A DNA stretch of 64,000 nt from an uncultured Pseudomonadota bacterium (GTDB taxonomy: Bacteria > Vulcanimicrobiota > Vulcanimicrobiia > Eremiobacterales > Eremiobacteraceae): the NCBI GenBank assembly GCA_963781145.1, contig CAWADW010000005.1:504423-568422 (forward strand). The letters run 5' to 3'. The translations under genes and the position numbers were made by a program. Positions 2,320 to 58,467 of this stretch are shown here, piece by piece. Each line of letters begins with the position of its first letter. The stretch's first letter is position 1. A model generated the notes under the pieces. It saw only the letters and a program-made list of their open reading frames with translations, made no database searches and was not told the DNA's origin.

Positions 2320-3369
2320 CTACGGGTGAACAGTAGGTGAACCAACCGGAGAAGGACTTTGGATTTCTTTTACATGCATCTGCACGCCGGCAAGCATGTC
2401 GTTCCATGCTCGCGCAAGCGCGGGCTCGAGACTATCAAGAGAGTGTACCCCGCCGCGCTGTTCGTAATAGTGTGCCTCGACACCACTCGAGTTTAAGTAC
2501 GACACTGTGCCTTGGACATACTGGGCGTTGACCAGCGGATCGTCGCTCCCGATCACGAGGAATGCAGGCTTCATTTGCATAGCTCGGACATATGCGTCTT
2601 TATCGTCATTTCTGAGCGACCCGGCCACGCTGAGCACCGCGGCCCACGCCTGCGAGTTTGATGGCGCAAACGCGAAGGCGTTGAACGCTCCCATCGAAAC
2701 CCCGCCAAGGTACGTATGGCGACGATCGATTCGATAGTTTGCTTGTGCGAATGCGAGCGCATCGGCCAGATCGCTCGTGCTGAGAGAGTTGACGGGCGAG
2801 TCGCCGCGCAGCCAGGGCGCTACAATAACCACGCCGCTCGCATCCGCAAGCTTTCGAAGCACGGGCTGAGAAAGCAACTCCGTCTCCGTTTGCTGTAAAC
2901 CGTGAAGCATGACGATCAATGGGGCTGATTTCTCAAAAGCGTAGCTGGGCGGCAAATAGATTGCGAGCGGTTGTAGCGTTTTATCGGAGCTTGAACCCAC
3001 CAAATCCAATCCAGCGCTGCCGGCCTGTTGAAACGCTTGTAGCGCTTTCGTGCTAATCAGCTGGTCGACGAGGTTAGTGTCCAGCGCAACTCGGACGTCG
3101 AGCCGCTCCATTTCGGCCGCATCTGAACGATCGGCCTGCGTCACTTCCGCCTGATCGGAATCCAGTCGCGCGACGATCTGATCCGCAAAACCCGTTTGCG
3201 ACGCAATGCGGGCAAAGTTTGACAAGGCGCGCGCGCGCGCGGCGGAGAGCTGCGCTTGCAGTGCTGCAACGCCGGCGGCGGGCGGATTTGCAGCCGCGCA
3301 CAGGGCCGTGATGGCGATCGCCGCCAAGGCTATTCGAGCGATCCATAATTTCGGCCAGTGTTTTAACAT
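2320..3369 (-). CDS. secreted alpha/beta-hydrolase esterase (PHB-depolymerase/esterase-like)
   Basis: N-terminal signal peptide (MLKHWPKLWIARIALAAIAITALCAA) starting at an internal ATG of ORF 2320..3696. GGVSMGA nucleophile elbow (GxSxG) and LHGLQQTE / VIGSDDPLV blocks. Confidence 0.6.
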   Translation of the reverse strand: MLKHWPKLWIARIALAAIAITALCAAANPPAAGVAALQAQLSAARARALSNFARIASQTGFADQIVARLDSDQAEVTQADRSDAAEMERLDVRVALDTNLVDQLISTKALQAFQQAGSAGLDLVGSSSDKTLQPLAIYLPPSYAFEKSAPLIVMLHGLQQTETELLSQPVLRKLADASGVVIVAPWLRGDSPVNSLSTSDLADALAFAQANYRIDRRHTYLGGVSMGAFNAFAFAPSNSQAWAAVLSVAGSLRNDDKDAYVRAMQMKPAFLVIGSDDPLVNAQYVQGTVSYLNSSGVEAHYYEQRGGVHSLDSLEPALARAWNDMLAGVQMHVKEIQSPSPVGSPTVHP

Positions 3370-3498
3370 GAAATGTGTCGTGCTTATGGACCGTCTGCAC
3401 ACGGACCTGTGTTGTAACAACAAGAAGTTTGCAATAGCGGTAAGCACCGCTGCTTTAGGAACCGTGCGTTTGTGCAATTTCCAAGAGGACCAATAAGA

Positions 3499-3852: not shown

Positions 3853-4226
3853 TAGACCACGTTATTCTCACAGTCACTGATTTCGAGCGTTCAGTCGCTT
3901 TTTACGCCATGGCCCTGAAGCCACTTGGGATCACAAACTTTATAGATTACGAAGGCCAAGACGGACACCCAGATTTGAAGGGTTTTGGTGACGGCAAAAG
4001 AGCTTTTTTCTGGCTCAAAGAAGGAAAGCCCGATCCCCAAGCGGTGCATGTTGGATTTGTGGCGAAAGACCATGCTGAGGTAGATGCATTCTACAAAGCG
4101 GCTGTGAACGCCGGAGGCAAGAGCAAAGAATCACCTCAAGCTCGGCCCGAATACTATCCTGGCTATTATGCGACGTGGGTGTTCGATCCCGACGGCCACG
4201 ATATCGAGGTCGTTCATAAAAGCTAA
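3849..4226 (+). CDS. VOC family protein (glyoxalase-like)
   Basis: MIDHVILTVTDFERSVAFY... and ...YYATWVFDPDGHDIEVV, typical of VOC/glyoxalase I-like proteins. Overlaps the upstream VOC gene by ATGA. Confidence 0.7.
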   Translation: MIDHVILTVTDFERSVAFYAMALKPLGITNFIDYEGQDGHPDLKGFGDGKRAFFWLKEGKPDPQAVHVGFVAKDHAEVDAFYKAAVNAGGKSKESPQARPEYYPGYYATWVFDPDGHDIEVVHKS

Positions 4227-6735: not shown

Positions 6736-8304
6736 CTAACTTTTTGTCGGCACCCGAGTGAGAACGGAGTCGTACCACCGTTCGAGGTCACTTCGGAAAA
6801 CGGCAAGCGCCTCTGCGTGCGCGTAGACCATGTGGCCCGATTGGTAGAATCCGTACGTGATGTGCGACTGCAACGCCGACGGCAAGTTTAGGTGGTTGAG
6901 TGTGTACACAGTGGCAAAATATGGTGTAGCAAAATCGAAGTAACCGTTGGCCGAGAACACTCGCAGGTACGGGTTCTTCGTCATCGCATCCGCGAGATCG
7001 GGGGCGACATTGGTTGGTTCCACTCCATTGTGCTTCCAGTCCCACGGCCTCGTCGCGCTGTAGTTCGTTGGTAAGTAGGGAATCCCGGCATTGTAGTGCA
7101 GATCCGCGCTGATATATTGATTGAAGGTTGCGGTGTATGCATCTCCAATCGCGACATCGGCTGGGTCCCAATTCGGCGACTCGCTCACAATATCCAGGCT
7201 GTACGAATAGTAGCGGCTGTCAAGTCTACCGATGATCTTCCCACTCGTGCGCAAGAGCTCGGCCTGGAAGCGATCGTATGGAATGCGAAGGTTCGATTCA
7301 CTAATATACTGCTCGGAGAGCCCAGTGTACGCGTGCAATTTTCGGATGACGTCGTTGCGCTCGGCGCTGCCGAGCATCGCGCCTTTAGTAAGTGCATCGA
7401 GATATTCACCCATTGCGAAGTGCTCGACCTCGGGGAGAAAGCTAGCAAGATCGCGCGTTGCAACCTGATGGTGATACCAGGCAGTGGCCGCTTCAGTAGG
7501 CAGATATAATGGATATGCCCAGTCTCCTCCGCCAATCGACTCGGGCGCATCTTCGATCTGCCAGTCGAGATTAAAATTGAGGATGGTGGACAGCAGCACG
7601 ACGCCGTTGAAGCCAATGCCCTTGTCTTGCAAATAGTCGACCAGCGCCGCCGAACGAGTCGTGCCATAACTCTCGCCGAAGAGGAATTTTGGTGAATTCC
7701 AGCGCTGGTTTTGCGTGATATAGGTCTGAATAAATTGTCCGAAGGCTGCGATGTCTCCATCGACACCAAAGAAGTCCTTCGGCTTCCCGACGCCGATGAT
7801 GCGGCTAAAGCCCGTGGCCGGAGCGTCGACAAAGACTTCGTCTGTCTTGTCGAGCAACGAGAATTGGTTGTCCCCGTAGCGATAGGGCGCCGGCGGAGTG
7901 ACCTGTGCGTCACTCGTTATCACGCGCACGGGGCCAAACGAACCCATGCGCAGCCATACGGTCGAACTGCCCGGTCCCCCGTTGTAAAAGAACGTTACGG
8001 GTCGTGTCGATGCATCCGCATTATCGAGCGTATAGGCGGTGTAAAACATCCTTGCGGTGGGTTCACCCGTCTCGGTCTTTATCGTAATGGTTCCCGCGAG
8101 CGCAGTATACGCAAGGGTCTTACCGTCGAGCACCAGTGCGTGATGGGTGACCGCATCGGCAACCTGAGGAAGCGGGGCGGAGGCCTTCGCTAACCTCTCC
8201 GGTTGTGAAACTGCATCGCTATTGTTGGCGAATGCTGGAGTTAAGGTGTAGCCTATGAGGAGAAGGCCGATCAGCAAAAATATCCGCTTCAATGTCAACT
8301 CCAT
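6736..8304 (-). CDS. peptidase S10 family (serine carboxypeptidase-like), secreted
   Basis: Signal peptide MELTLKRIFLLIGLLLIGYTLTPAFA. S10 hallmarks FFYNGGPGSST, FLFGESYGT (catalytic Ser) and a 520-aa length. Confidence 0.7.
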   Translation of the reverse strand: MELTLKRIFLLIGLLLIGYTLTPAFANNSDAVSQPERLAKASAPLPQVADAVTHHALVLDGKTLAYTALAGTITIKTETGEPTARMFYTAYTLDNADASTRPVTFFYNGGPGSSTVWLRMGSFGPVRVITSDAQVTPPAPYRYGDNQFSLLDKTDEVFVDAPATGFSRIIGVGKPKDFFGVDGDIAAFGQFIQTYITQNQRWNSPKFLFGESYGTTRSAALVDYLQDKGIGFNGVVLLSTILNFNLDWQIEDAPESIGGGDWAYPLYLPTEAATAWYHHQVATRDLASFLPEVEHFAMGEYLDALTKGAMLGSAERNDVIRKLHAYTGLSEQYISESNLRIPYDRFQAELLRTSGKIIGRLDSRYYSYSLDIVSESPNWDPADVAIGDAYTATFNQYISADLHYNAGIPYLPTNYSATRPWDWKHNGVEPTNVAPDLADAMTKNPYLRVFSANGYFDFATPYFATVYTLNHLNLPSALQSHITYGFYQSGHMVYAHAEALAVFRSDLERWYDSVLTRVPTKS

Positions 8305-30137: not shown

Positions 30138-30370
30138 GATATCGTCGGCAGTCTCATAGACGGTCGTGTTGCGCCCGATTTCCCCGCAGCCGCCAAGCGG
30201 GATGACTCGGAGAAACGGTCGTTTTTGGATCGACGAGCGGCTCTAGACTTGCCCCCTGTTGGGAGGCTGGGAAAAATTCGTGCAGCATGCACGATGCATT
30301 TAGGCGGCCCCCGCATTTGGCCTGCTGCTTACGTGTCCATGGGCGACTTGACACTCGCCCGCTACGGGTC

Positions 30371-30400
30371 GTAGGGGGCGATTTTCCAATCGCCCCCTAC
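30371..30400. repeat. REP-like palindromic element, family A (GTAGGGGGCGATT-TTCC-AATCGCCCCCTAC), copy 1
   Basis: Perfect 13-bp inverted arms in an intergenic position. Confidence 0.7.
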
Positions 30401-34599: not shown

Positions 34600-34628
34600 A
34601 AGGGGCGATTTTCCAATCGCCCCCTACA
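34600..34628. repeat. REP-like element, family A, copy 2 (between htrA and dnaK)
   Basis: AAGGGGCGATTTTCCAATCGCCCCCTACA. Confidence 0.65.
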
Positions 34629-39336: not shown

Positions 39337-41620
39337 TTGGCAATCGCACATACTCTTGGATTTCCCCGCATAGGCCACAAGCGAGAGCTCAAGCGCGCTC
39401 TCGAATCTTATTGGAAAGGCGACATCGGCGCAGACGATCTCAAAGCGGTGGGGCGCCAGCTCCGTAGCCGCCATTGGCAGCTGCAGCGTGATGCCGGCTT
39501 GGACAACGTTGCTGTCGGTGATTTTTCGTTTTACGACCAGATGCTCGACACGAGCGCCATGGTCGGCGCGATCCCCGCGCGTTACGGTTTCTCCGGCGAA
39601 ACCGTCGATTTCGATACATATTTTGCGATGGCACGTGGCTCAGCCGCATCGCCTGCCATGGAAATGACCAAATGGTTCGATACGAACTACCACTATATCG
39701 TTCCCGAGTTTACCCCAGAGATGTCCTTCGCGCTCCGCAGCGCAAAGATGATCGCCCAAACGCGCGAGGCGATCGACGCCGGCTTTGTCCCCAAGCCCGT
39801 GCTCATCGGTCCAGTTACCTATCTGTGGCTTGGCAAAGAGCGCGCGACAAATGGCAAGCCATTCTCGCGCTTGTCGCTTCTCGAGCGCCTGCTCCCCGTG
39901 TACCAAGAAGTGCTGCGGCAGTTGAAAGGCCTTGGCGTTCGCTTGGTTCAGATGGACGAGCCTGCGCTGGTCGCGGACTTGCCCGCTCCCTGGCAACAAG
40001 CGTATCAGAGCGCGTACGAGGTGCTTGGTGCAGCTTCGGTAGACATCTTGCTCGCCACGTACTTCGGTGCCGTTGACGAGCACATCACTTTACTTGGGTC
40101 GCTGCCGGTGGCGGGCATCCATCTGGATCTCGTGCGTTCACCCGAACAACTCGATGCTGTGCTCGGAAGCTGGCGGCCGGGCAGGTCCCTCTCGCTCGGC
40201 GTTGTTGATGGACGCAATGTCTGGCGCACCGATCTTCGGCGCGCGCTCACGCTGCTCGAACGCGCACACGACGTTGTCGACGATGTTTGGGTTGGACCGT
40301 CCTGCAGCCTTATGCACGCCCCGGTCGATCTTACCCTCGAGTCGAAACTCGATGTCGAACTGCGTTCTTGGCTTGCCTTCGCTGTGCAAAAGCTGCACGA
40401 GCTCGCGATCCTCAAACGCGGCGTCGAGCACGGCAGCGAAGCGATCGAAGACGAGCTGCAACTATCGGATATCGTGCAACGCAGCCGCGAACAATCCAAA
40501 CTTATTCACAACAAAGCTGTCGCCGAGCGGGTCGCGCATCTGACCCAAGACGACGAGCGGCGACGCGAGCGATTTTCGGACTCGGCAGCGGCGGCAGCGC
40601 GAACAGCTCAACCTGCCTGCTTTTCCCACGACCACTATCGGAAGCTTCCCACAGACGCCGGCAATTCGCGAAGCGCGAGCCAAGTTCAAGAAAACCGAAC
40701 TTGACGAGAAAGCCTACGAGAAGGCGATGCAAGCGGAGATCGAGCACGCGATTCGCGAGCAGGAAAAACTTGGCATTGACGTCCTCGTTCACGGCGAAGC
40801 TGAACGCAACGACATGGTAGAGTACTTCGGAGAGCAGCTGTCAGGCTTTGCCTTCACGCAACACGGCTGGGTGCAAAGCTATGGTTCGCGCTATGTCAAG
40901 CCGCCGATCATCTACGGGGATGTCGAACGACCGACGCCGATGACCGTTCGCTGGATCGAGTACGCCCAATCCCTGACCGACAAGCCGATGAAGGGGATGC
41001 TCACTGGACCTGTGACTATTTTGCAGTGGTCTTTTGTGCGCGACGATCAGCCCCGTTCGGAAACCGCCACGCAAATCGCTCTGGCCATCCGGGACGAGGT
41101 TCGCGATCTCGAGCACGCCGGCATCCGCATCATTCAAATCGACGAGCCCGCGTTTCGTGAAGGCTTGCCGCTCAAACGCAAAGACTGGAAATCGTACATC
41201 GAATGGGCATCGCGCGTGTTTCGGATTGCCTCCTCGCCGGTGGACGACGCTACTCAGATCCACACCCATATGTGCTACTCGGAGTTTAACGATGTCTTCG
41301 AGGTTTTGGCACTGCTTGACGCCGACGTCATTACGATCGAATCGTCGCGCAGCGGCATGGAGTTGCTCGACGCATTCAAGAAGTTTCGTTATCCAAACGA
41401 AATTGGTCCAGGCGTATACGACATCCACTCGCCGCGCATCCCGAGCTCCGAAGAAATGCACGCTCTCTTAGAGAAGGCCGCAAACTTCCTTTCGCCCGAT
41501 CAACTCTGGGTCAATCCGGATTGTGGTTTGAAGACGCGGCGCTGGGAAGAGGTTTTGCCTGCCTTGCGCAACATGGTCGCCGCGGCGAAGCGCATGCGCG
41601 GAAAAGTTGCGGCGGTTTAA
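39337..41620 (+). pseudogene. metE: cobalamin-independent methionine synthase MetE, frameshifted near 40600 (probably a sequence error)
   Basis: The N-terminal Meth_synt_1 domain runs to ...DSAAAAAR. The C-terminal domain ([19 protein letters not shown]...[13 protein letters not shown]...) is in another frame (ORF 40727..41620). The lesion is one extra base, or 2 missing, within a GCGCG run. Confidence 0.9.
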
Positions 41621-42156
41621 GGTCGCGGGCGGGGCTCCTCGAAGAGCATTCTCGCCTGAAACGTAAAACCGGGCAAGGCCGGATCTCGAATTTCGTCGCC
41701 GCGGGCAAACGTTTGCCCGCCGTTTTTCCGCCGCGCAGTCACCGTTTGCAAATCTGTGTCGACGAGAAACACGACGGTCGTTCCAGCAGCCAGATAGGCG
41801 CGGACCTTCTCCTCAATGTCTTTAACCGCGTCCCCAGATGATAGGATTTCGACGACCACATCGGGCGCAACGCGAGGAATGTCGGCGTCTGTCGCATTCT
41901 CATACGGTATTCGCCCGTAGGAAAGGTATGCAACGTCCGGGACGAGCGGACGGCGCGCTTGGCCCGGTGGTTGGATGCGAAATTCCCACTCGGTGCCGAC
42001 TCGACCCGAACCTTGTCGGTTCGCCCAGTCGAGAAGCCTGCTGACAAAAACGCTTTGCGCCAGCGCGTGCTTGCGCTGCGGACTCACCTTTTGCAGTGCG
42101 CGTCCGTTGACCCATTCTGTCGCGGGCTTGGTTTCCGGCAAAACGATCTCAAACAT
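41617..42156 (-). CDS. Uma2 family endonuclease (DUF820, restriction-endonuclease-like fold)
   Basis: About 180 aa with conserved acidic/Lys residues (..PDVAY.., ..DVVVEILS..). Confidence 0.7.
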
Positions 42157-42201
42157 GGCACTCAGATTATATCACGCGAATGCGCTTGGCGGCTAGCAGG
42201 T

Positions 42202-42226
42202 CACGCGCGAATAAAATTCGCGCGTG
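42202..42226. repeat. REP-like element, family B variant (CACGCGCGAATAAAATTCGCGCGTG)
   Basis: Palindrome related to CGCGCGAAT-TTA-TTCGCGCG, abutting two family-A copies. Confidence 0.55.
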
Positions 42227-42252
42227 GGGCGATTTTCCAATCGCCCCCTACA
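42224..42252. repeat. REP-like element, family A, copy 3
   Basis: GTGGGGCGATTTTCCAATCGCCCCCTACA. Confidence 0.7.
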
Positions 42253-42257
42253 TGATC

Positions 42258-42286
42258 GTGGGGCGATTTTCCAATCGCCCCCTACA
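42258..42286. repeat. REP-like element, family A, copy 4 (its CTAC/GTAG tetramer supplies the acs TAG stop codon)
   Basis: Identical to copy 3 and directly repeated 34 bp downstream. Overlaps the acs stop at 42282-42284. Confidence 0.7.
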
Positions 42287-44237
42287 GGGCGTTGTCGATC
42301 GCTTCGAGCGACGCGGGATTTTCCAAAGCAGTCAAGTCGCCTAAATCGAGCTTGAGGTAGCGCGCTCGCGCTACCCGGCGCATCAGTTTTGCGTTGCGCG
42401 TTCGGGGCAGATCGGTCACAAAGAGAATGGCCTTAGGCGCGAGCGCCTTCCCCATCGCCGCGACGACCGCGTCCATCAACGCAAAGCGAAGCTCGTCACT
42501 GCCTTGCCAACCTGGGCGCAAGACCGCGAGGCAGACAACGGCATCACCTTTGATTTGGTCGGGAACGGCGATGGCCGCCGCTTCGCGGACCGACCCGTGG
42601 CCAACGAGTGCGCTCTCATACTCCGCTGGCCCAACTCGCTTGCCTGCAACGTTGATTGTGTCGTCCGAGCGCCCATGGATGAACCAGAAATTGTCATCAG
42701 AGATGCTGGCCCAGTCGCCGTGCACCCAAACATTTTCAAACTTCGACCAGTAGGTCTGCACATAGCGCTCGTCGTCGTGCCAAAAGCCGAGCGTCATGCC
42801 TGGCCACGGTTGCCGGACAACGAGCTCTCCCACCTGTCCGCGCACACTGTTGCCCTGCTCGTCAACGACGTCGGCATCCATGCCCGGCACCGGTCCGTGG
42901 AAGGCACACGGTACCAGCGGACGGATCGGGAAACACCCAAGAATGCCACCGCTGATTTCGGTGCCGCCGGAGTAGTTGATGATCGGCAGCTTCCCGTTGC
43001 CCACGTTGATCGAGAACCACCGGTACGGCTCGGGATTCCACGCTTCACCGGTCGATCCCAAGATGCGCAGCGCCGACAGGTCGTGTTTGCGCGGCACCTC
43101 ATCGCCGTGCACCATCAGAGAGCGAATGGCTGTCGGGGCGATGCCAAGATGCGTTACCTTGTGACGTCCACACACTTCCCAAAGCCGGCCAGGGTGCGGG
43201 AAATCAGGCGTACCGTCATAGAGCACTGCGGTTGCGCCAAGGCCCAGCGCCCCAAGCACCAAAAACGGCCCCATCATCCAGCCCATATCCGTGAACCAAA
43301 GCATTCGATCATTCGGCTTGACGTCAAAGCACAAATATTGATCGATGATCACCTTCACTGGGAAGCCGGCGTGTCCGTGAACGGCTCCCTTGGGCTTACC
43401 CGTGGAGCCTGATGTATAGAGCAGAAGGTAGGGGTCGTTCGCGTCCGTTGGTTCGGGAGCGAAATAGTTTGGCTGCGACCACGTCGACTGGTGCCAATCC
43501 ACGTCGCGATGCTCGTGCCAGTCGATCGGTGCGTCGTTGTGGCGCAGCACCACCGCGTGTTTGATGCTCGCGACCATATCGCACGCAGCGTCGGCAACGC
43601 TCTTCATGTTCACAAATTTGCCCCGCCGAAGCGCGCCGTCCACCGTGAGCAAGACTTTCGCTTTCGCATCATCCAAGCGCGTCGCGAGCGCTTGAGCCCC
43701 ATATCCTGAGAAGGCCGGTACGGCGATCGCCCCCATGCGCCCAATGGCAAGCAGCGCAATCGCGGTCTCTGGAATGAGCGGCATGAACATGCCCACGGTC
43801 TCGCCCCGGCGAACCCCGAGATCGCTCAACGCTCCACACAGCTTTGAAACCTGCACAAGCAATTGCTCGAACGTCAGCGTGCGGGTGGCGCCGTTTTCAG
43901 ATTCCGAGATGATCGCCGGCGCGTGCGCTCGGCCCTCTTCAATGTGGCGATCGATGCAGTTATACGATGCGTTGTATCGCCCGCCCACAAACCAGCGTGC
44001 GAACGGCGTTCCGCGCGAGAGATCCAACGCTTGGCGATAAGGGGTCAGCCACGCGAGCTGCAGATGCAAAACAAGCCGATCGTAAAACGAGGCGATATCG
44101 CGGTGCGCAAGCTCCCAGAGCTCGTCTAACGAAGCAACGCCAGCCTCGCGCATGAACTGCGTGATGTTGGCGTTTTCTTTTGTCTGGGAGGTCGGCTCCC
44201 AAGTGAATGCGGCGCCGACGTCGTTGCGGATCGCCAT
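42282..44237 (-). CDS. acs: acetate--CoA ligase (AMP-forming acetyl-CoA synthetase family)
   Basis: 650 aa, AMP-binding motif YTSGSTGKPKG, Acs-like N- and C-terminal regions. Confidence 0.85.
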   Translation of the reverse strand: MAIRNDVGAAFTWEPTSQTKENANITQFMREAGVASLDELWELAHRDIASFYDRLVLHLQLAWLTPYRQALDLSRGTPFARWFVGGRYNASYNCIDRHIEEGRAHAPAIISESENGATRTLTFEQLLVQVSKLCGALSDLGVRRGETVGMFMPLIPETAIALLAIGRMGAIAVPAFSGYGAQALATRLDDAKAKVLLTVDGALRRGKFVNMKSVADAACDMVASIKHAVVLRHNDAPIDWHEHRDVDWHQSTWSQPNYFAPEPTDANDPYLLLYTSGSTGKPKGAVHGHAGFPVKVIIDQYLCFDVKPNDRMLWFTDMGWMMGPFLVLGALGLGATAVLYDGTPDFPHPGRLWEVCGRHKVTHLGIAPTAIRSLMVHGDEVPRKHDLSALRILGSTGEAWNPEPYRWFSINVGNGKLPIINYSGGTEISGGILGCFPIRPLVPCAFHGPVPGMDADVVDEQGNSVRGQVGELVVRQPWPGMTLGFWHDDERYVQTYWSKFENVWVHGDWASISDDNFWFIHGRSDDTINVAGKRVGPAEYESALVGHGSVREAAAIAVPDQIKGDAVVCLAVLRPGWQGSDELRFALMDAVVAAMGKALAPKAILFVTDLPRTRNAKLMRRVARARYLKLDLGDLTALENPASLEAIDNAL

Positions 44238-44250
44238 GCGCCGCGCTTAT

Positions 44251-45711
44251 CTACTGAGGGGTGGTTCCCTGCGTCTGCGGTGCGGGGCTGCTCGAGCCTG
44301 TTGCGCCAGCCGTGTTGCCTGTGCCAGTGGTGGTCGGCGGCACCGTGCCATCGTGCACCGTGGCGGCTGCAATCCGGTCCGCAATGTACGACATTGCTCG
44401 CTGCAGCTGCGTATCGGTTTCTGGTCTACCAAAATCCGCAGGTTTCACATCGTCGACCGCAATGTCCGGCGCGATGCCAACAGAGTTGATATCGCGGCCG
44501 CTTGGCGTGAGATACCGAGCTGTGGTGATCTTAATGGCGCTACCGTCCGGCAACGGATAGATGGTCTGCACGACCCCTTTGCCAAACGTTCGCGTTCCGA
44601 TGAGCACGCCAGCCCCTGAGTCTTGAATCGCGCCTGACGTAATCTCAGAAGCGCTGGCTGTGTATTCATTGACGAGCACCGCAAGCGGGAGTTGGGGAGC
44701 TGCGATGTTCTCCGCATCGTAGGTAGTCAAGGGTTTCGTGCGCGCATCGATGGACACGATCGGCCCTTCCGGGATGAAGAGCGAAGACACATCGATGGCC
44801 GCGTTGAGGTAACCACCACCGTTGTTGCGCAGATCCAAGATCACGCCTTTGACGCCTTGCTTGTCCAGCTTCTCAATCGCGCTGGCGAGCTCTTGGCCGG
44901 TCGTGAGACCGAAGACGAGCACCTGAACATACCCGATGTCGTTATCGATAACCCGCTCGCGCACGCTTGGCGCATGAATGGTTTCGCGAGTGATCATGAA
45001 GGTCATCGGCTTGGGTTCGTCTTTGCGCTGCACGGTCAGTTGCACCGTCGTGCCTGCTTTGCCGCGAATCAGCGAACTGTCTTGTTCGATGGAGAGGCCC
45101 GCGGTCGACTTGGCATCGACGTTGAGAATCACATCGCCTGCCTGAAGTCCGGCCTTGTCCGCCGGGCCGCCGTCGATCGTTTGCACGACGAGGAGCGATT
45201 TCGAAATCGGATCAACATCGAGCACGATCCCGACGCCAGCGAAGTTTCCGCCGTCCAAGCCTTCATTGAGGCTGCGAAAATCCTTGGGTGACATGAAGAC
45301 GGTCCACCGATCGTGGAGCGAGTCCATCATGCCGGCGATAGCTGCGTAGGCGAGGTTGCGGTTGCCCAAGGTCGAGCCAAACTTTTGGTCGGCAAGGGCG
45401 AGCGTGTTGTTCAGCACGGCAATGTCTGACTCGTCGCTGCCCGAACCGTGCGCGGTCGGGATTTTGTTCGGATCGCCGCCGTGGCTCTTGATGTAGTCGC
45501 GCAAGCCCGTGATGGCGCCGCTGAGGAGCGTTTGATCGGTGGTCGACTTGTAAAACTCAGAAATTGCTTGCTCGAAGGAGTAGTCCAGCATGGACCGCCC
45601 GACTTCATCGGACGACGCACGCGAGGGACTCGCGAACACACCGAAGGTCAGGCTGAATGCGAACGCCGCAGCGACGAGCCTTGCGGCGATTCTACGAATG
45701 GGTTGGGTCAT
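44251..45711 (-). CDS. S41 family C-terminal processing peptidase (CtpA-like), paralog 1
   Basis: PDZ domain (GGPADKAGLQAGDVIL) and S41 catalytic core (TASASEITSGAIQD...GKGVVQT). Pro/Thr/Gly-rich C-terminal tail. Confidence 0.85.
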   Translation of the reverse strand: MTQPIRRIAARLVAAAFAFSLTFGVFASPSRASSDEVGRSMLDYSFEQAISEFYKSTTDQTLLSGAITGLRDYIKSHGGDPNKIPTAHGSGSDESDIAVLNNTLALADQKFGSTLGNRNLAYAAIAGMMDSLHDRWTVFMSPKDFRSLNEGLDGGNFAGVGIVLDVDPISKSLLVVQTIDGGPADKAGLQAGDVILNVDAKSTAGLSIEQDSSLIRGKAGTTVQLTVQRKDEPKPMTFMITRETIHAPSVRERVIDNDIGYVQVLVFGLTTGQELASAIEKLDKQGVKGVILDLRNNGGGYLNAAIDVSSLFIPEGPIVSIDARTKPLTTYDAENIAAPQLPLAVLVNEYTASASEITSGAIQDSGAGVLIGTRTFGKGVVQTIYPLPDGSAIKITTARYLTPSGRDINSVGIAPDIAVDDVKPADFGRPETDTQLQRAMSYIADRIAAATVHDGTVPPTTTGTGNTAGATGSSSPAPQTQGTTPQ

Positions 45712-45747
45712 GCTGTTCCTCTCTTTTTATGGGGCGAGTTTTCTACG

Positions 45748-47178
45748 TTAGACGCTGGGATTTGTGAGGGCGATCTGGCGCTTCAGGTAGCGCAGGGCTG
45801 CTTGCAGCTGAGTATCTTTGCCAGTGACGCCGACGTCTCTGTAGTCCATCGGCACTACGATGTTAGGCTCGATGCCCTTTTTATTGATGTCGCGGCCGTC
45901 CGGCGTCACGTACCGCTGGGTCGTGACTTTGATTGCGCTGCCCCCCGGCAAGTCATAGATCGTCTGCACGACTCCCTTGCCAAAGGTCTTGACACCCACG
46001 AGAATCCCAATCTTTGAATCCTGGATCGCGCCGGCAGTGATCTCAGAAGCGCTGGCCGAGTATTGATTCACGAGAACGACCAGCGGGTGTGGCGGAATCG
46101 CATCTTGGTTGGCGTCATCCGTTTCCACATGCCCGTCGCGGTCGATCCGCGAAACAATTGGTCCATCCGCGATGAATTTCGACGAGATGTCCACCGCGGC
46201 ATCAAGTAGTCCTCCGCCGTTGTCGCGCAGATCCAAGACAAAGGCTTTGGCGCCTTGCTTCAGTAGCCGATCGAGCGCGTCGGTCACTTCTTGCGCCGAG
46301 TGTTCACCGAAATCGTAGAGTTGAATGTATCCGACGTTCCCGTCAATCATGTGTGACGTCATGGACGGCACTTCGATCACTTCGCGCTCGATCGCATAGT
46401 CGCGAACGTCATTCTTGCCGCGGAGAATCGTCATGTGCACCGTTGATCCCGCTTTGCCACGGATCAGGTTCATCACGAGATCGAGGTCGATGCCCTTTGT
46501 TGCTTTGCCGTCGACCGACACGATCACGTCGCCCCGCTTTAACCCTGCGCGAGCAGCCGGGGTGCCGTCAATGGGTTGGATGACGTTGACTTCGTGCGTC
46601 TTTGGATCTTTGCCGATGTACACGCCAATGCCGCCGAAATCGCCCCCTTGAATGAATTCCGAGAGTGACGTCTTGTCGCGCGGGCTCAAGAACACCGTGT
46701 ACGGATCGCGCAGCGAATCGAGCGCGCCCTCGATCGCAACGTACGTCAAATCTTGGGAGCCGGCTTGCTTGCCATAGTTGTGCAACGCCGTGGAGAGCAG
46801 GGTGTTGGCGTCTGCGTCAACTTGAGCCCCAGATGCCGAGGCGGTGATTGCCGGCAGGCTCAAGGTTCCGTTGATGTGCTTGGTCTTGAGGAACTCGAGC
46901 AAGCCTTTTCGCTCGCCACTGAGGAGCTGCGATTCATCAATGGGCTTGTAGTACACGTCGCGGACCTTATCCAGCGACATGTCGAGCATATCGAGGTCTT
47001 TTTGCTCGTCATTTCCTGCGCCCTCGCTGCCGTCAAAAGCTATGTTGCCGAGATCCCAGGCCAAAACTGCGCGCCGTTCACCCAACCGCTCGCGCAGCGG
47101 CGCGGCGTGCTGAAGCGCAAGGGTGGCTACGACCAGCGCGGCCGCAAGGGTGAAGAGAAGGAGGGCTTTACGAACCAC
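45748..47178 (-). CDS. S41 family C-terminal processing peptidase, paralog 2
   Basis: Same architecture (GTPAARAGLKRGDVIVSVDG; SASASEITAGAIQDSKIGILVGVKTFGKGVVQTI). Confidence 0.85.
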   Translation of the reverse strand: MVRKALLLFTLAAALVVATLALQHAAPLRERLGERRAVLAWDLGNIAFDGSEGAGNDEQKDLDMLDMSLDKVRDVYYKPIDESQLLSGERKGLLEFLKTKHINGTLSLPAITASASGAQVDADANTLLSTALHNYGKQAGSQDLTYVAIEGALDSLRDPYTVFLSPRDKTSLSEFIQGGDFGGIGVYIGKDPKTHEVNVIQPIDGTPAARAGLKRGDVIVSVDGKATKGIDLDLVMNLIRGKAGSTVHMTILRGKNDVRDYAIEREVIEVPSMTSHMIDGNVGYIQLYDFGEHSAQEVTDALDRLLKQGAKAFVLDLRDNGGGLLDAAVDISSKFIADGPIVSRIDRDGHVETDDANQDAIPPHPLVVLVNQYSASASEITAGAIQDSKIGILVGVKTFGKGVVQTIYDLPGGSAIKVTTQRYVTPDGRDINKKGIEPNIVVPMDYRDVGVTGKDTQLQAALRYLKRQIALTNPSV

Positions 47179-47282
47179 GGGCGGGACAGTTTCCTTTCAA
47201 TTCTGCTATTTATTTCTTCGGCGGCTGGGGTCATCATGCCCGCAATCCGCCTCCCTATCATAACGAATCGGCAGCCCGCTTG

Positions 47283-48569
47283 TTACAAGCGAGTGAGGGG
47301 GTTCACCGGTACGCCGTTCACCCGAATTTCAAAATGTAAGTGTGGTCCCGTAGCGTAGCCCGTGGCCCCGACGGCCCCGATAACCTGGCCCCGCTGAATA
47401 TGCTGATTGACCGATACGTACATTGCCGAGCAGTGAGCATAAAGCGTCGATAGTCCCGATCCGTGGTCTAGAATGATGGCATTGCCGTATCCGCCGTACC
47501 AACTTGCGTACAGGACGACGCCGTCGGCGGCTGCTTGAATCGGCGTGCCATAGTCGGCACCGATATCGATGCCCGAATGGAGCGCGTAGCGCCCGGTAAT
47601 TGGATCCACCCGCATGCCGAAAGGCGAGGTGATCGGACCTCGCACAGGCCACGCAAAGACGACCGGACCGAATTCCGAACAGACGGGCGGAGCCAGACCC
47701 GCCGCCATCGCAGCCATCCGACGAGCTTGGCAAGCCTCGTATCGGGCGCGCAGCGTGACCGCCTCGTCCTCGCGCTGTTTTTCTTGGATCAACGCCTGGA
47801 GCCGGGCCTCCTCCGCAGCGCTCAACCCTTCAAGCTCGTACACCTGTTGGGCGATGATCGAGCGCTGACTTGACGCAATAGCAAGCAAGGAGCGTCGCTG
47901 GTCGGCGAGTTGGCCAAGCTCCTGCTTGCGTGCAAGCTCGTCTTCTTGCTCTCGCACCAACGCTGCTTGCGTGCTCTCCAAGCCGAGCACGATCGTTTCG
48001 TAACGCGCTTGCTCGGAGTTCACCGTCGCGATGAGCCGCGAGTCGGAACGCAAAATAGCGCGGATGAAATCCCAGCGTTCGATAAAGTCGACGAATGAGG
48101 TCGCACTCAAAAGCACGTCGAGGTACGATGTTGCGCTCCCGTATTCATACACGTCAACAATCCGGTGATTGAGCGCATCGCGATGGCGGTCGAGACTGGC
48201 TTGCGCGGCTGCAAGTTGGCGTTTGCGAATAGCCAAGCGCAGTTGCGTCTGTGTAATGGCGCTGCCAAGCGCACCCAAATCGCCGCGCACCCGAATAATG
48301 CTGTACTGCACGGATTCGAGTTGTTGCGAGATCGTCTGCTCTTTGAAGCGCGCGACGTGGAGTTTGAGACGGCTCTCGTGCAGCTTACGCTGCGTTGCCT
48401 CGAGCAGCGCTTTCTTTTCTTGAATCTTTTCGCTGATCGGCACCGGGGTCGCGGCCAGCGCGACCGGTGCGAATGCGCTTGCAAATGGCTGGACACTAAG
48501 GATGACAACCGCGAGGACAACAAGACGTAGTCGCGCGAATTTATTCGCGCGTGCGCGCTGGATGTTCAA
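47283..48569 (-). CDS. M23 family metallopeptidase with N-terminal coiled coil (EnvC-like murein hydrolase activator)
   Basis: Signal peptide, long coiled-coil region and a C-terminal LytM/M23 domain (HSGIDIGADYGTPI...GPHLHFE). TTG start overlaps the ftsX stop. Confidence 0.8.
   Translation of the reverse strand: MNIQRARANKFARLRLVVLAVVILSVQPFASAFAPVALAATPVPISEKIQEKKALLEATQRKLHESRLKLHVARFKEQTISQQLESVQYSIIRVRGDLGALGSAITQTQLRLAIRKRQLAAAQASLDRHRDALNHRIVDVYEYGSATSYLDVLLSATSFVDFIERWDFIRAILRSDSRLIATVNSEQARYETIVLGLESTQAALVREQEDELARKQELGQLADQRRSLLAIASSQRSIIAQQVYELEGLSAAEEARLQALIQEKQREDEAVTLRARYEACQARRMAAMAAGLAPPVCSEFGPVVFAWPVRGPITSPFGMRVDPITGRYALHSGIDIGADYGTPIQAAADGVVLYASWYGGYGNAIILDHGSGLSTLYAHCSAMYVSVNQHIQRGQVIGAVGATGYATGPHLHFEIRVNGVPVNPLTRL
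48526..48550. repeat. REP-like element, family B (GTAGTCGCGCGAATTTATTCGCGCG), located inside the N-terminal coding region of the M23 gene
   Basis: Exact family-B sequence. It encodes RARANKFARL of the signal-peptide n-region. Confidence 0.6.
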
Positions 48570-51398: not shown

Positions 51399-51423
51399 GT
51401 AGTCGCGCGAATTTATTCGCGCG
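51399..51423. repeat. REP-like element, family B (GTAGTCGCGCGAATTTATTCGCGCG)
   Basis: Intergenic, immediately after the ACAD stop codon. Confidence 0.65.
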
Positions 51424-56123: not shown

Positions 56124-56311
56124 CAAGGGTTTCCTCCTTAAGTGAGTGAGAATGCTTAACCGACGAACCAGCCACTGCGGTCGGCCGAGCCGATGCACGC
56201 GCCGTCGTCCCGATTAAGGTGAGTTTAAGGTTCGAACGGTGACTTCGCACACCTGCTCGCAGCGCGTCTTGCGGGACGGATAAGGGCGACAGCGGACCTA
56301 AAGGTCCGCTG

Positions 56312-57223
56312 CTACATTGCGTTAGCGGGTGTATTTTTCAGTGGCGGGCGTGGTTGGCGGAGAATCAATCGCACGAGATCCGGAATGTGCGCCGGACTCT
56401 CGGCGACTGGTACATTAACTTTTTCAAACGCTTGAACTTTTGCTTGCGCCGTGCCGCTGCTGCCACTGACGATTGCCCCCGCGTGACCCATGCGCTTGCC
56501 TTCGGGTGCAGAACGTCCACCGATGAACGCCACCGCTGGTTTTGTGAATTCTCGACGTGCAATCATCGCGGCGGCATCTTCTTCGTCGGTACCACCGATT
56601 TCGCCGACGACAACCACGGCGTGAGTCTCAGGATCTTCCTGGAAAGCCTGCAAGCAGTCAGTGAAGACGGTGCCGATGATTGGATCGCCGCCGATACCCA
56701 CGCACGTGCTCTGGCCGATGCCCGCGCGCGTCAACTGATCGACGATCTCGTACGTTAGCGTGCCACTGCGCGATACGAGCCCGACGTTGCCCGCGGAGAA
56801 CACATGGCCCGGCATAATACCCACGAGCGACTGGCCGGGCGTGACAAGGCCAGGACAATTAGGTCCGATGAGTCGAGCGTCTGGGGGTATGACAGCAACT
56901 GCTTTGAGCATGTCGTGCACTGGAATGCCTTCTGTGATGCAAACGATCAGCTTGATCCCCGCATCGGCTGCCTCTAAAATTGCATCGGCGGCGAACGGTG
57001 GTGGAACGAATATGATGCTTACCGTCGCACCGGTTTTGGCAACCGCCTCGCTCACGGTGTTAAAGACATCGAAGCCTTCTACGGTTTGGCCGCCTTTGCC
57101 GGGCGTGACGCCGCCGGCTATGTTCGTGCCGTAAGCGCGCATGCGGTTGGCGTTGTGCAAGCCCTCGCGACCGGTGATGCCTTGAACGAGGACGACGCCT
57201 GTACGGTCGAGATAGATGGACAA
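56312..57223 (-). CDS. sucD: succinate--CoA ligase subunit alpha
   Basis: CoA-binding and CoA-ligase motifs ([17 protein letters not shown], the His-phosphorylation loop GHAGAI). TTG start. Confidence 0.9.
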
Positions 57224-57242: not shown

Positions 57243-57268
57243 ACGCGCGAATAAATTCGCGCGACTAC
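57243..57268. repeat. REP-like element, family B (minus-strand GTAG head provides the sucC TAG stop codon)
   Basis: On the minus strand reads GTAGTCGCGCGAATTTATTCGCGCGTAC. Overlaps the sucC stop at 57265-57267. Confidence 0.65.
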
Positions 57269-58413
57269 GTTTTGGCGATGGCGACTGCGCGCGCAGCGCC
57301 GTCGTTCATCGTTTCAACTGCCGCAATGCCGGCGGCTTCCAAGACGGCTCGCCCTTCCTTTTCATTGGTGCCTGTGAGCCGCACGACCAGTCGATCCTTT
57401 TTCCATTTGCCACCGTCAAGGGCGGCAATCAAACCGCGTGCCACTTCATCACCGCGCGTAATGCCGCCAAAAATGTTGATGAACAAAGCCTTCACTCGCG
57501 GATCAGAGGTCACAATATCCACTGCGTTCCGAACGACATCGGCCTTTGCGCCGCCACCAATGTCGCAGAAATCGGTCGCTTCGCCGCCCGCAGCTCGCAC
57601 CGCGTCCATCGTCCCCATGACAAGTCCGGCCCCGTTTCCGATCACGCCAACGCTTTCGTTCCCTTTGCCGCTTAGGTAAGCGTAGTTGAGATTGGTCTGC
57701 CGAGCGCGCTGTTCGAGCACGTGGTCTGGCAAGTCGGTTCGCCATGCCTCGAGTTCCGGGTGACGAATCAAACCGTTGTCGTCAATGTCGACCTTCGCAT
57801 CCGAGGCGACGAGCTTCCCGTCTTTGGTGATGGCGAGCGGATTGATTTCGAGCAGCATCGCGCCGATGTCAAAGAACAGCGCGTACAGCTTACCGAGAAT
57901 CCCGACGAATTGGTTGGCGATCTCGGCTGGGATGCGGGCTTCTCGAGCGACGCGCCGCCCGATGAACGGCCAATACCCACCCGCAGGATTGATGCAGTAC
58001 TTCGCGATCGCAGAGGGATTCGTGGCGGCGACTTCCTCGATGTCCATGCCTCCCATGGCCGAGGCGATGATAATGGGGCGCTTGCTCGCGCGATCGACCG
58101 TTATGGATAGGTACAGCTCGCGTTCAATGTCCATTCGCTGCTCAATCAGGATGCGTTTGGCAACCTCGCCCTTGATATTCATGCCGAGGATGGCTTGAGC
58201 CGGTTCGCGGACGTCGTCCGCGCTCGTGCAGAACTTGATCCCGCCTGCCTTGCCTCGTCCGCCGACGAGCACTTGCGCTTTCACCACGGAGGGCGCCGGA
58301 TTCTCACGCATGATCTGCACGGCTTCCTCTACCGAAGACGCGACGCGACCACGCGGCACGGGAATGCCCGCTTTGGCAAATAGTTCTTTCCCTTGGTATT
58401 CAAGTAGACGCAT
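57265..58413 (-). CDS. sucC: succinate--CoA ligase (ADP-forming) subunit beta
   Basis: Start MRLLEYQGKELFAKAGIPVP, preceded by GGAGAG. ATP-grasp and CoA-ligase domains. C-terminus ...AIAKT*. Confidence 0.9.
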   Translation of the reverse strand: MRLLEYQGKELFAKAGIPVPRGRVASSVEEAVQIMRENPAPSVVKAQVLVGGRGKAGGIKFCTSADDVREPAQAILGMNIKGEVAKRILIEQRMDIERELYLSITVDRASKRPIIIASAMGGMDIEEVAATNPSAIAKYCINPAGGYWPFIGRRVAREARIPAEIANQFVGILGKLYALFFDIGAMLLEINPLAITKDGKLVASDAKVDIDDNGLIRHPELEAWRTDLPDHVLEQRARQTNLNYAYLSGKGNESVGVIGNGAGLVMGTMDAVRAAGGEATDFCDIGGGAKADVVRNAVDIVTSDPRVKALFINIFGGITRGDEVARGLIAALDGGKWKKDRLVVRLTGTNEKEGRAVLEAAGIAAVETMNDGAARAVAIAKT

Positions 58414-58435
58414 GACGCTCTCCGGTTGATGGGCG

Positions 58436-58467
58436 CTGTGCGGGCGATTTTCCAATCGCCCTCTACA
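58436..58467. repeat. REP-like element, family A, degenerate copy 5
   Basis: GTGCGGGCGATTTTCCAATCGCCCTCTACAT. Confidence 0.55.

Follow-up and report, generated by a model that had tools for sequence, protein, structure and literature searches.

In the 64-kb stretch of DNA analysed here (the window) the spacer between acs and uma2 in all likelihood carries three GTAG-type REPs, two of a family A and one headless member of a family B, which lie on the sense strand of acs and are part of a genome-wide population in which a domesticated, single-copy RAYT (TnpA-REP) has family A as its cognate substrate. The spacer is a genuine, variable and reproducible REP cluster of an uncultured, little-studied soil bacterium and is ordinary as a genomic feature. 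Both flanking ORFs are located on the minus strand, and their ends at 42156 and 42282 agree with the length of 125 bp given in an earlier note on this DNA. On the plus strand the window reads gtCACGCGCGAATAAAATTCGCGCGTGGGGCGATTTTCCAATCGCCCCCTACAtgatCGTGGGGCGATTTTCCAATCGCCCCCTACAggg from 42200 to 42290, and the region contains the following features:

42282–44237, minus strand: acs, acetyl-CoA synthetase, 651 aa, with ACAS_N, AMP-binding and AMP-binding_C domains

42257–42286, minus strand: family-A REP, the copy adjoining acs, with its T-GTAG head at 42282–42286 and the hairpin GGGGCGATT-GGAA-AATCGCCCC at 42260–42281

42223–42252, minus strand: second family-A REP, distal to acs, with its TGTAG head at 42248–42252 and the hairpin at 42226–42247

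42202–42226, minus strand: headless family-B REP, stem CACGCGCGAAT/ATTCGCGCGTG, minus-strand loop TTT

42166–42174, minus strand: putative extended −10 box of uma2, TGATATAAT, ending 9 nt before the ATG

41617–42156, minus strand: uma2, 179 aa, a putative endonuclease of the Uma2 family, downstream of the cluster

A repeat search returned CGTGGGGCGATTTTCCAATCGCCCCCTACA twice, at 42223–42252 and 42257–42286, as direct copies that are 100% identical over 30 nt and follow each other with a period of 34 nt, and each of the two hairpins inside them (42226–42247 and 42260–42281) has a perfect 9-bp stem and a 4-nt loop. On the strand that is sense for acs and uma2, the minus strand, the A unit is T-GTAG-GGGGCGATT-GGAA-AATCGCCCC, with 8 reliably paired bp in the family as a whole and 9 in the spacer copies. 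From hairpin 1 to the GTAG of the second copy runs a minus-strand linker of 8 nt, ACGATCAT (42252–42259), whose final T at 42252 doubles as the T of the second TGTAG head. The third palindrome, CACGCGCGAAT-AAA-ATTCGCGCGTG on the plus strand of 42202–42226, forms a perfect 11-bp stem (42202–42212 with 42216–42226) around a 3-nt loop and overlaps the second A copy, the GTG at 42224–42226 being common to both. It is a family-B unit fused 1 nt past the 3' end of that copy, with one T more in the loop than the canonical form. As its minus-strand loop is T-rich like that of canonical B it is oriented like the A copies, and all three units are thus arranged head-to-tail.

Much of what the earlier note had said about the spacer is borne out by these data: a B palindrome abuts an A copy, a second A copy follows in direct orientation, REPs of two families (A units with the GTAG layout and a headless B) share one spacer, and the A unit next to acs reaches into the acs stop, which lies inside it as CTA of the plus strand at 42282–42284. 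The "B variant" of that note does contain the family-B palindrome but is a headless fusion and not a free variant. The note had been made from the plus strand and therefore missed the GTAG head, the link to a RAYT, the B fusion and the fact that both the stop and the last sense codon of acs come from the REP head.

A chance origin of these repeats can be excluded, as the family-A 29-mer with at most 3 mismatches has 4 matches in the window against 0.00 expected in shuffles, and 0.00 chance matches are expected for the B palindrome as well. The 34-nt doublet was not picked up by Tandem Repeats Finder at a minimum score of 30, and an Rfam gathering scan of the whole window gave no match. CRISPR was considered and rejected, since the spacers are only 1–8 nt long and identical units are dispersed genome-wide.

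REPs are defined by a GTAG tetranucleotide directly 5' of a short palindrome, according to Corneloup 2021 (PMC8266576) and Di Nocera 2013 (PMC3733652), and the layout of the A unit is that of a canonical GTAG-tagged REP. Canonical family B reads GTAGT-CGCGCGAA-TTTA-TTCGCGCG and a further family C reads GTAG-CAGCGGACC-TTTA-GGTCCGCTG. Altogether the window contains 11 REP units, and those outside the spacer are:

30340–30400, minus strand: second head-to-tail doublet with a 35-nt period, family A at 30375–30400 followed by a unit of subfamily A2 at 30340–30365

34602–34627, minus strand: single family-A REP, missing at the orthologous site of the CAVTNB MAG

48527–48551, plus strand: canonical family-B REP with GTAGT head, kept at the orthologous site of the CAVTNB MAG

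51399–51423, plus strand: canonical family-B REP with GTAGT head, likewise kept at the orthologous site of the CAVTNB MAG

56290–56315, minus strand: family-C REP, the TAG of its head being the stop of a 303-aa ORF (56312–57223)

57244–57268, minus strand: canonical family-B REP, the TAG of its head being the stop of a 396-aa ORF (57265–58455)

58441–58466, minus strand: single family-A variant, GTAGAGGGCGATTGGAAAATCGCCCG

The CAVTNB MAG is the nearest sequenced relative with a RAYT and shows 90% DNA identity over the shared 8–22 kb that align; at its empty site corresponding to 34602 no clean insertion junction can be defined, the flanks having diverged too far. The GTAG head is present in 10/10 substitution-matched REPs of the window, the exception being the spacer B unit at 42202–42226, which is without GTAG because the second A copy occupies the position of the head with its 3' end. 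The hairpin itself is under constraint, as 90.7% of the stem-pair cells are paired and one stem pair, 12-19, differs between subfamilies in a compensatory way, with U-A in 19 sequences, C-G in 15 and no pairing in 3. This degree of pairing was reached by 0/500 shuffles, and sliding the partner by 1–3 columns leaves at most 53.5%. We conclude that A, B and C are probably new families of a known kind of element. They resemble the GTAG REP superfamily, of which 24 consensus families are given in PMC3733652 (Di Nocera, De Gregorio, Rocco 2013), in having GTAG at one end of a stem of 6–13 bp, sub-families with complementary stem changes, several families per genome, a position between tandem or convergent ORFs near the upstream 3' end, and clusters of variable composition with HT (head-tail) dimers. 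A further palindrome with GTAG/CTAC ends and a 9-bp stem, GGTAGCGCG-CT-CGCGCTACC, is found inside the acs coding region at 42356–42375; it resembles a GTAG palindrome after acs in the related locus L060 (GGTAGCGCGAGTTTACTCGCGCTAC), which may be a coincidence.

The first A unit is placed exactly at the ancestral end of acs. The stop of the gene is the TAG of the REP head (42282–42284), and the TG at 42285–42286 is the end of the last codon CTG (Leu). Nearly all of the Acs C-termini available from 79 of the best 120 matches end at one alignment position, mostly with …EAIDxAR, and acs ends with …GCG CGC TAA in the REP-free locus L061 (79% Acs identity), with …GCC CTG TAG in the window and with …GCC TTG TAG in the CAVTNB MAG. 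Comparison of these homologue ends indicates that TGTAG took the place of the stop and of the two bases before it, turning the final codon into Leu and leaving the protein length unchanged, so that the end of acs reads as rewritten by the REP head from …AR-TAA to …AL-TAG. The same situation recurs, as three window genes, acs, the ORF at 57265–58455 and the adjacent ORF at 56312–57223, end in the TAG of a REP head, and among the matches listed this TAG terminates, in frame, an ORF at least 100 codons long for 24 of 96 REPs compared with 6 and 8 in the other frames (binomial 1.6e-4). According to Di Nocera 2013 (PMC3733652) GTAG termini often supply the TAG stop of a flanking ORF. In the window, which has 58% GC, TAG accounts for 17/53 stops of long ORFs; other TAG stops precede apparent decayed REPs, for example at 6736 (TAGCGGGCGCTTGCTCAAGTCGTC).

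Copy-number variation in other assemblies, which the earlier note had proposed to look for, is indeed found, with shortened, exchanged and REP-free versions of the locus:

Window: A-A-B (headless)

L002 (ERZ25039587), 97.1% identical, different sample: A-A-B (headless), same 125-bp spacer

L001, 99.66% identical: A-(3' half of A)-B, the second A shortened by 14+1 nt

CAVTNB MAG, 90% DNA identity: A-B (headless)-B (with head), second A copy absent

L060, 82% Acs identity: one different GTAG palindrome, 4 nt past TAA

L061 and L062, 79–80% Acs identity: no repeats

The cluster gains and loses units between relatives, and in this general sense only it may be called a hot spot for REP proliferation, as had been claimed. 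That the second A copy is an artefact of assembly or sequencing and the real locus is A-B seems very improbable to us. Such an artefact would fit the long assembly L001, which at 99.66% identity has no intact second copy, and the breaks of short-read contigs exactly at the A unit (the end of L003 and the start of L066), where copy number is unreadable. The window sequence is also not error-free, given that its metE is frameshifted and that of L001 is intact. On the other hand L002, an independent assembly from another sample, has the identical spacer, so the doublet is not the artefact of one assembly, and L001 keeps the 3' half of the second copy and hence descends from a doublet too; its shortened copy could itself be a long-read assembly error. 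Moreover, head-to-tail A-A doublets with periods of 34–38 nt are common elsewhere (window 30340–30400, L028, L014, L055, L059). As for metE (cobalamin-independent methionine synthase, 39337–41620, plus strand), it is split into ORFs of 455 and 297 aa by an extra C at 40567 relative to L001 (intact, 760 aa) with several substitutions nearby, which is either a real strain pseudogene or an assembly error.

An exact scan for the 20-nt A core in one genome per species gave at least 51 loci, most of them from the MAGs CAVTNB01 (MFD02248.bin.2.139) and JAJPHJ01 (Centralia_MAG_155), and in CAVTNB01 at least 100 REP units are present in 34 8-kb loci. Among the related MAG loci in the matches listed, the GTAG head is found in 77/89 A copies with at most 1 mismatch in the body and in 87/102 with at most 3 mismatches, a T precedes GTAG in 62 of 76 copies, and the dinucleotide preceding GTAG is in most cases CT or AT. 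Matches to the A core in unrelated phyla have no GTAG head. Four of these loci, from Verrucomicrobiota MAGs (L011, L022, L032, L053), have conserved flanks of their own (TTAAT, 4 nt, core, TCCTTGAAGTCG), and this repeat looks like an unrelated family whose hairpin became similar by convergence. Of the REP positions among the matches listed, 72 are intergenic, 22 lie within an ORF and 8 at a locus edge, as assigned with a crude ORF model in which some of the cases inside ORFs may reflect spurious ORFs. The intergenic REPs lie between tandem (40), convergent (25) or divergent (7) genes and mostly at gene 3' ends, and in the tandem settings 31 heads are on the sense strand and 9 on the antisense strand. 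The lineage therefore harbours a high-copy, dispersed and mostly extragenic population, as is typical of GTAG-type REPs.

Among the 120 best Acs matches the closest named ones are Eremiobacterota (Eremiobacteraceae, Eremiobacter antarcticus), and nearly all other named ones belong there as well (Baltobacteraceae, Velthaea, Tumulicola), with Candidatus Binatus sp. and Candidatus Acidoferrales as lower-ranked exceptions. From this one protein the related MAGs probably belong to the Eremiobacterota (WPS-2), and the "proteobacterium" titles of some of them (L049/L067) are probably wrong. A literature search found no paper pairing Eremiobacter* with REPs or extragenic palindromes, and from it REP/RAYT systems appear not to have been described before in this phylum.

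A RAYT is encoded by a 151-aa ORF (3015–3470) in the Centralia MAG locus L051. It scores 99.4 bits against NCBIfam NF047646 (REP-associated tyrosine transposase, equivalog; cut-off 80), matches Pfam Y1_Tnp with 5.8e-9 and the E. coli TnpA-REP structure PDB 4er8 with 6.6e-6, its HVH being aligned to HMH (HUH) and the YxxNP motif being aligned too. The gene is located between four plus-oriented and three minus-oriented A units. Its nearest relatives (59–63% identity) are found in L055, L056, L057/58 and L059, where direct A doublets or triplets lie upstream and inverted A units downstream of the RAYT, and in all of them as in L051 the gene is syntenic between amine-oxidase-like and thioredoxin-DsbH-like genes. 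A RAYT is thus flanked by inverted family A in five related contigs, of which L055 comes from the CAVTNB MAG with its 90% DNA identity to the window. In the 64-kb window itself tblastn found no RAYT, and for the genome of the window we infer the link from this nearest case. The gene between inverted REP arrays in L035 and the ORFs between inverted REP copies in L018 were rejected as RAYTs, as was L029, since tblastn gave no match in these three loci and only the query locus was recovered. Next to families B or C no RAYT was found.

The single-copy and syntenic RAYTs follow the REPtron pattern of PMC8266576. In that work (Corneloup 2021) the Group 3 REPtrons of S. maltophilia and Marinomonas (Mb) share with our lineage the GTAG next to short perfect palindromes and a single-copy tnpA-REP flanked by REPs and inverted REPs. 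The E. coli and Marinomonas enzymes are described there as cutting next to the REP at CT or CA, with GTAG as the guide, and the dinucleotide 5' of GTAG in our lineage is comparable, mostly CT or AT. The RAYT of the lineage is only ~40% identical to named RAYTs.

Among adjacent REP pairs at most 60 nt apart in the window and the related loci listed, 56/57 are direct and 1 is inverted when counted on the best-matching strand, and with a stricter match of the body 43/43 are direct. Junctions of A and headless B of a similar kind occur at four other loci (L049, L045, L052, L035). At L035 an (A+B) composite is repeated three times with a 63-nt period (4003–4190) upstream of a small gene, a glyoxalase/VOC-like one as guessed from its translated start, and an inverted A/headless-B lies downstream of the same gene, while L045 (700–860) contains an array of B units cut after the loop (GTAGTCGCGCGAATTTATTC-TTCTTAAAAT). 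The linker ACGATCAT of the spacer doublet resembles those of the RAYT-flanking A arrays (TAGATCTAT, AAGATTCAT and AGGATCCAT, from L055 2922–2931 and L059 30–38) and the linkers of other doublets are unrelated to it, a likeness that may hint at the RAYT-flanking arrays as source copies.

The earlier note had called the spacer BIME-like and had suggested it as a candidate binding site for nucleoid proteins or gyrase. E. coli REP clusters of the mosaic type bind IHF, gyrase and Pol I. The spacer is similar to them in that more than one type of REP is present at a gene 3' end and in that the number of units varies between strains. The mosaic of two families, and GC-rich palindromes that could extrude as cruciforms, would suit a DNA-level platform for IHF, gyrase or another nucleoid protein. 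BIMEs, however, consist of REPs in alternating or inverse orientation (Nunvar 2010; Corneloup 2021, PMC8266576) with defined linkers and a possible IHF site, whereas the spacer units and nearly all pairs of the lineage are direct; the co-oriented units make the cluster a head-to-tail REP array, neither a BIME nor a REPIN. With 8 nt in the A-A linker and 1 nt at the A-B junction there is no room for an IHF site, and the IHF consensus WATCAANNNNTTR is absent from the spacer, including the sequence between the copies where a search had been recommended; its 2 matches in the whole window (0.9 expected) are located elsewhere. Furthermore, the Y/Z REPs of E. coli are bulged, and those of this lineage are short and perfectly palindromic. 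A role as a platform for IHF, gyrase or another nucleoid protein therefore seems unlikely, and the name BIME does not apply. With the REPINs of Pseudomonas fluorescens the cluster shares the possibility that a REP doublet is the replicative unit, accompanied by a vertically inherited single-copy RAYT, but REPINs are inverted doublets that form one long hairpin and the spacer doublet is direct and forms two separate hairpins in the minimum-free-energy fold.

At the RNA level the fold of the spacer is very stable (−69.1 kcal/mol, z = −5.6), the hairpins folding separately. In the acs transcript the first hairpin begins 1 nt after the UAG, and the first two have GNRA-type GGAA loops. This position, the stability and the preference for sense-oriented heads in tandem gene settings (31 vs 9) would be expected if the hairpins were terminators or mRNA-end elements of acs, selected by the host and merely resembling mobile repeats. 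In E. coli, REP hairpins at most 15 nt from a stop reportedly affect translation and mRNA stability. A terminator scan of 42157–42281 nevertheless gave no terminator-like site, as the sequences after the hairpins, ACGAUCAU, A and GACCUGCU, include no U-tract, and the element is accordingly not an intrinsic (Rho-independent) terminator. Against a host-selected element also speak the identical units at many unrelated loci, convergent genes included, and the REP-free L061, where no hairpin follows acs, so that the gene does not require one. Termination would also give no role to the invariant GTAG head, which is the motif that RAYTs recognise (PMC8266576). We consider this origin very unlikely and prefer dispersed, RAYT-linked REPs, whose hairpins in the acs mRNA would most probably act as a barrier to 3'-exonucleases or as a stabiliser and would insulate acs from uma2. 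By analogy a hairpin so near to the stop could also impede the termination of translation.

A promoter scan of the spacer showed no canonical −35/−10 promoter; the putative extended −10 box of uma2 is not called by this consensus scan, which needs a −35 element. The box is kept as TGATATACT in L049 and as TGATACAAT in the REP-free L061, where ~33 nt follow the acs TAA before the conserved GTGATAcAAT box and the uma2 ATG. Together with the lack of a Shine-Dalgarno sequence at uma2 this points to a transcript that is likely separate from that of acs and leaderless or nearly so. On the other side of acs, upstream of it, two tandem paralogous S41 (CtpB-like) peptidase genes (44251–47237) account for the direct repeats D2 and D3, which are spaced by 1398 nt and ~75% identical.

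With 30 identical nt and 4 differing ones on either side, the doublet matches neither a precise insertion nor a precise tandem duplication of 34 nt. We propose that the cluster grew by strand-specific gain and loss of units next to a resident REP, either through a RAYT-type reaction (single-strand cleavage with strand transfer) at the [C/A]T that immediately precedes GTAG, in analogy to the characterised enzymes, or by slippage between direct copies. More specifically, but only as a tentative and rather doubtful idea, the RAYT of this lineage might add units on one strand only, immediately 5' of an existing (T)GTAG, which may belong to a REP already in place or be a G/TAG where a gene ends. 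Such an addition would explain the nearly exclusive head-to-tail arrays, the abutting arrays with a period of 26–27 nt, the recurrent A/headless-B fusions and the rewritten terminal codons and stops with TAG at 17/53.

For the annotation of this genome the analysis means that the spacer repeats and about eight other sites in the window (one further doublet and about seven units that stand alone) are REPs, probably with a cognate RAYT, and not regulatory sites specific for acs or uma2. The head-to-tail dimer has been reported as absent or rare in most REP-bearing genomes, and its near-exclusive use here is hence unusual. Should one-strand addition prove true, these genomes would carry a natural footprint of the mechanism by which REPs are disseminated, and a domesticated transposase would be shaping stop-codon usage. 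The head-to-tail bias together with the heads that overlap stop codons could help to constrain how RAYTs place new REP copies.
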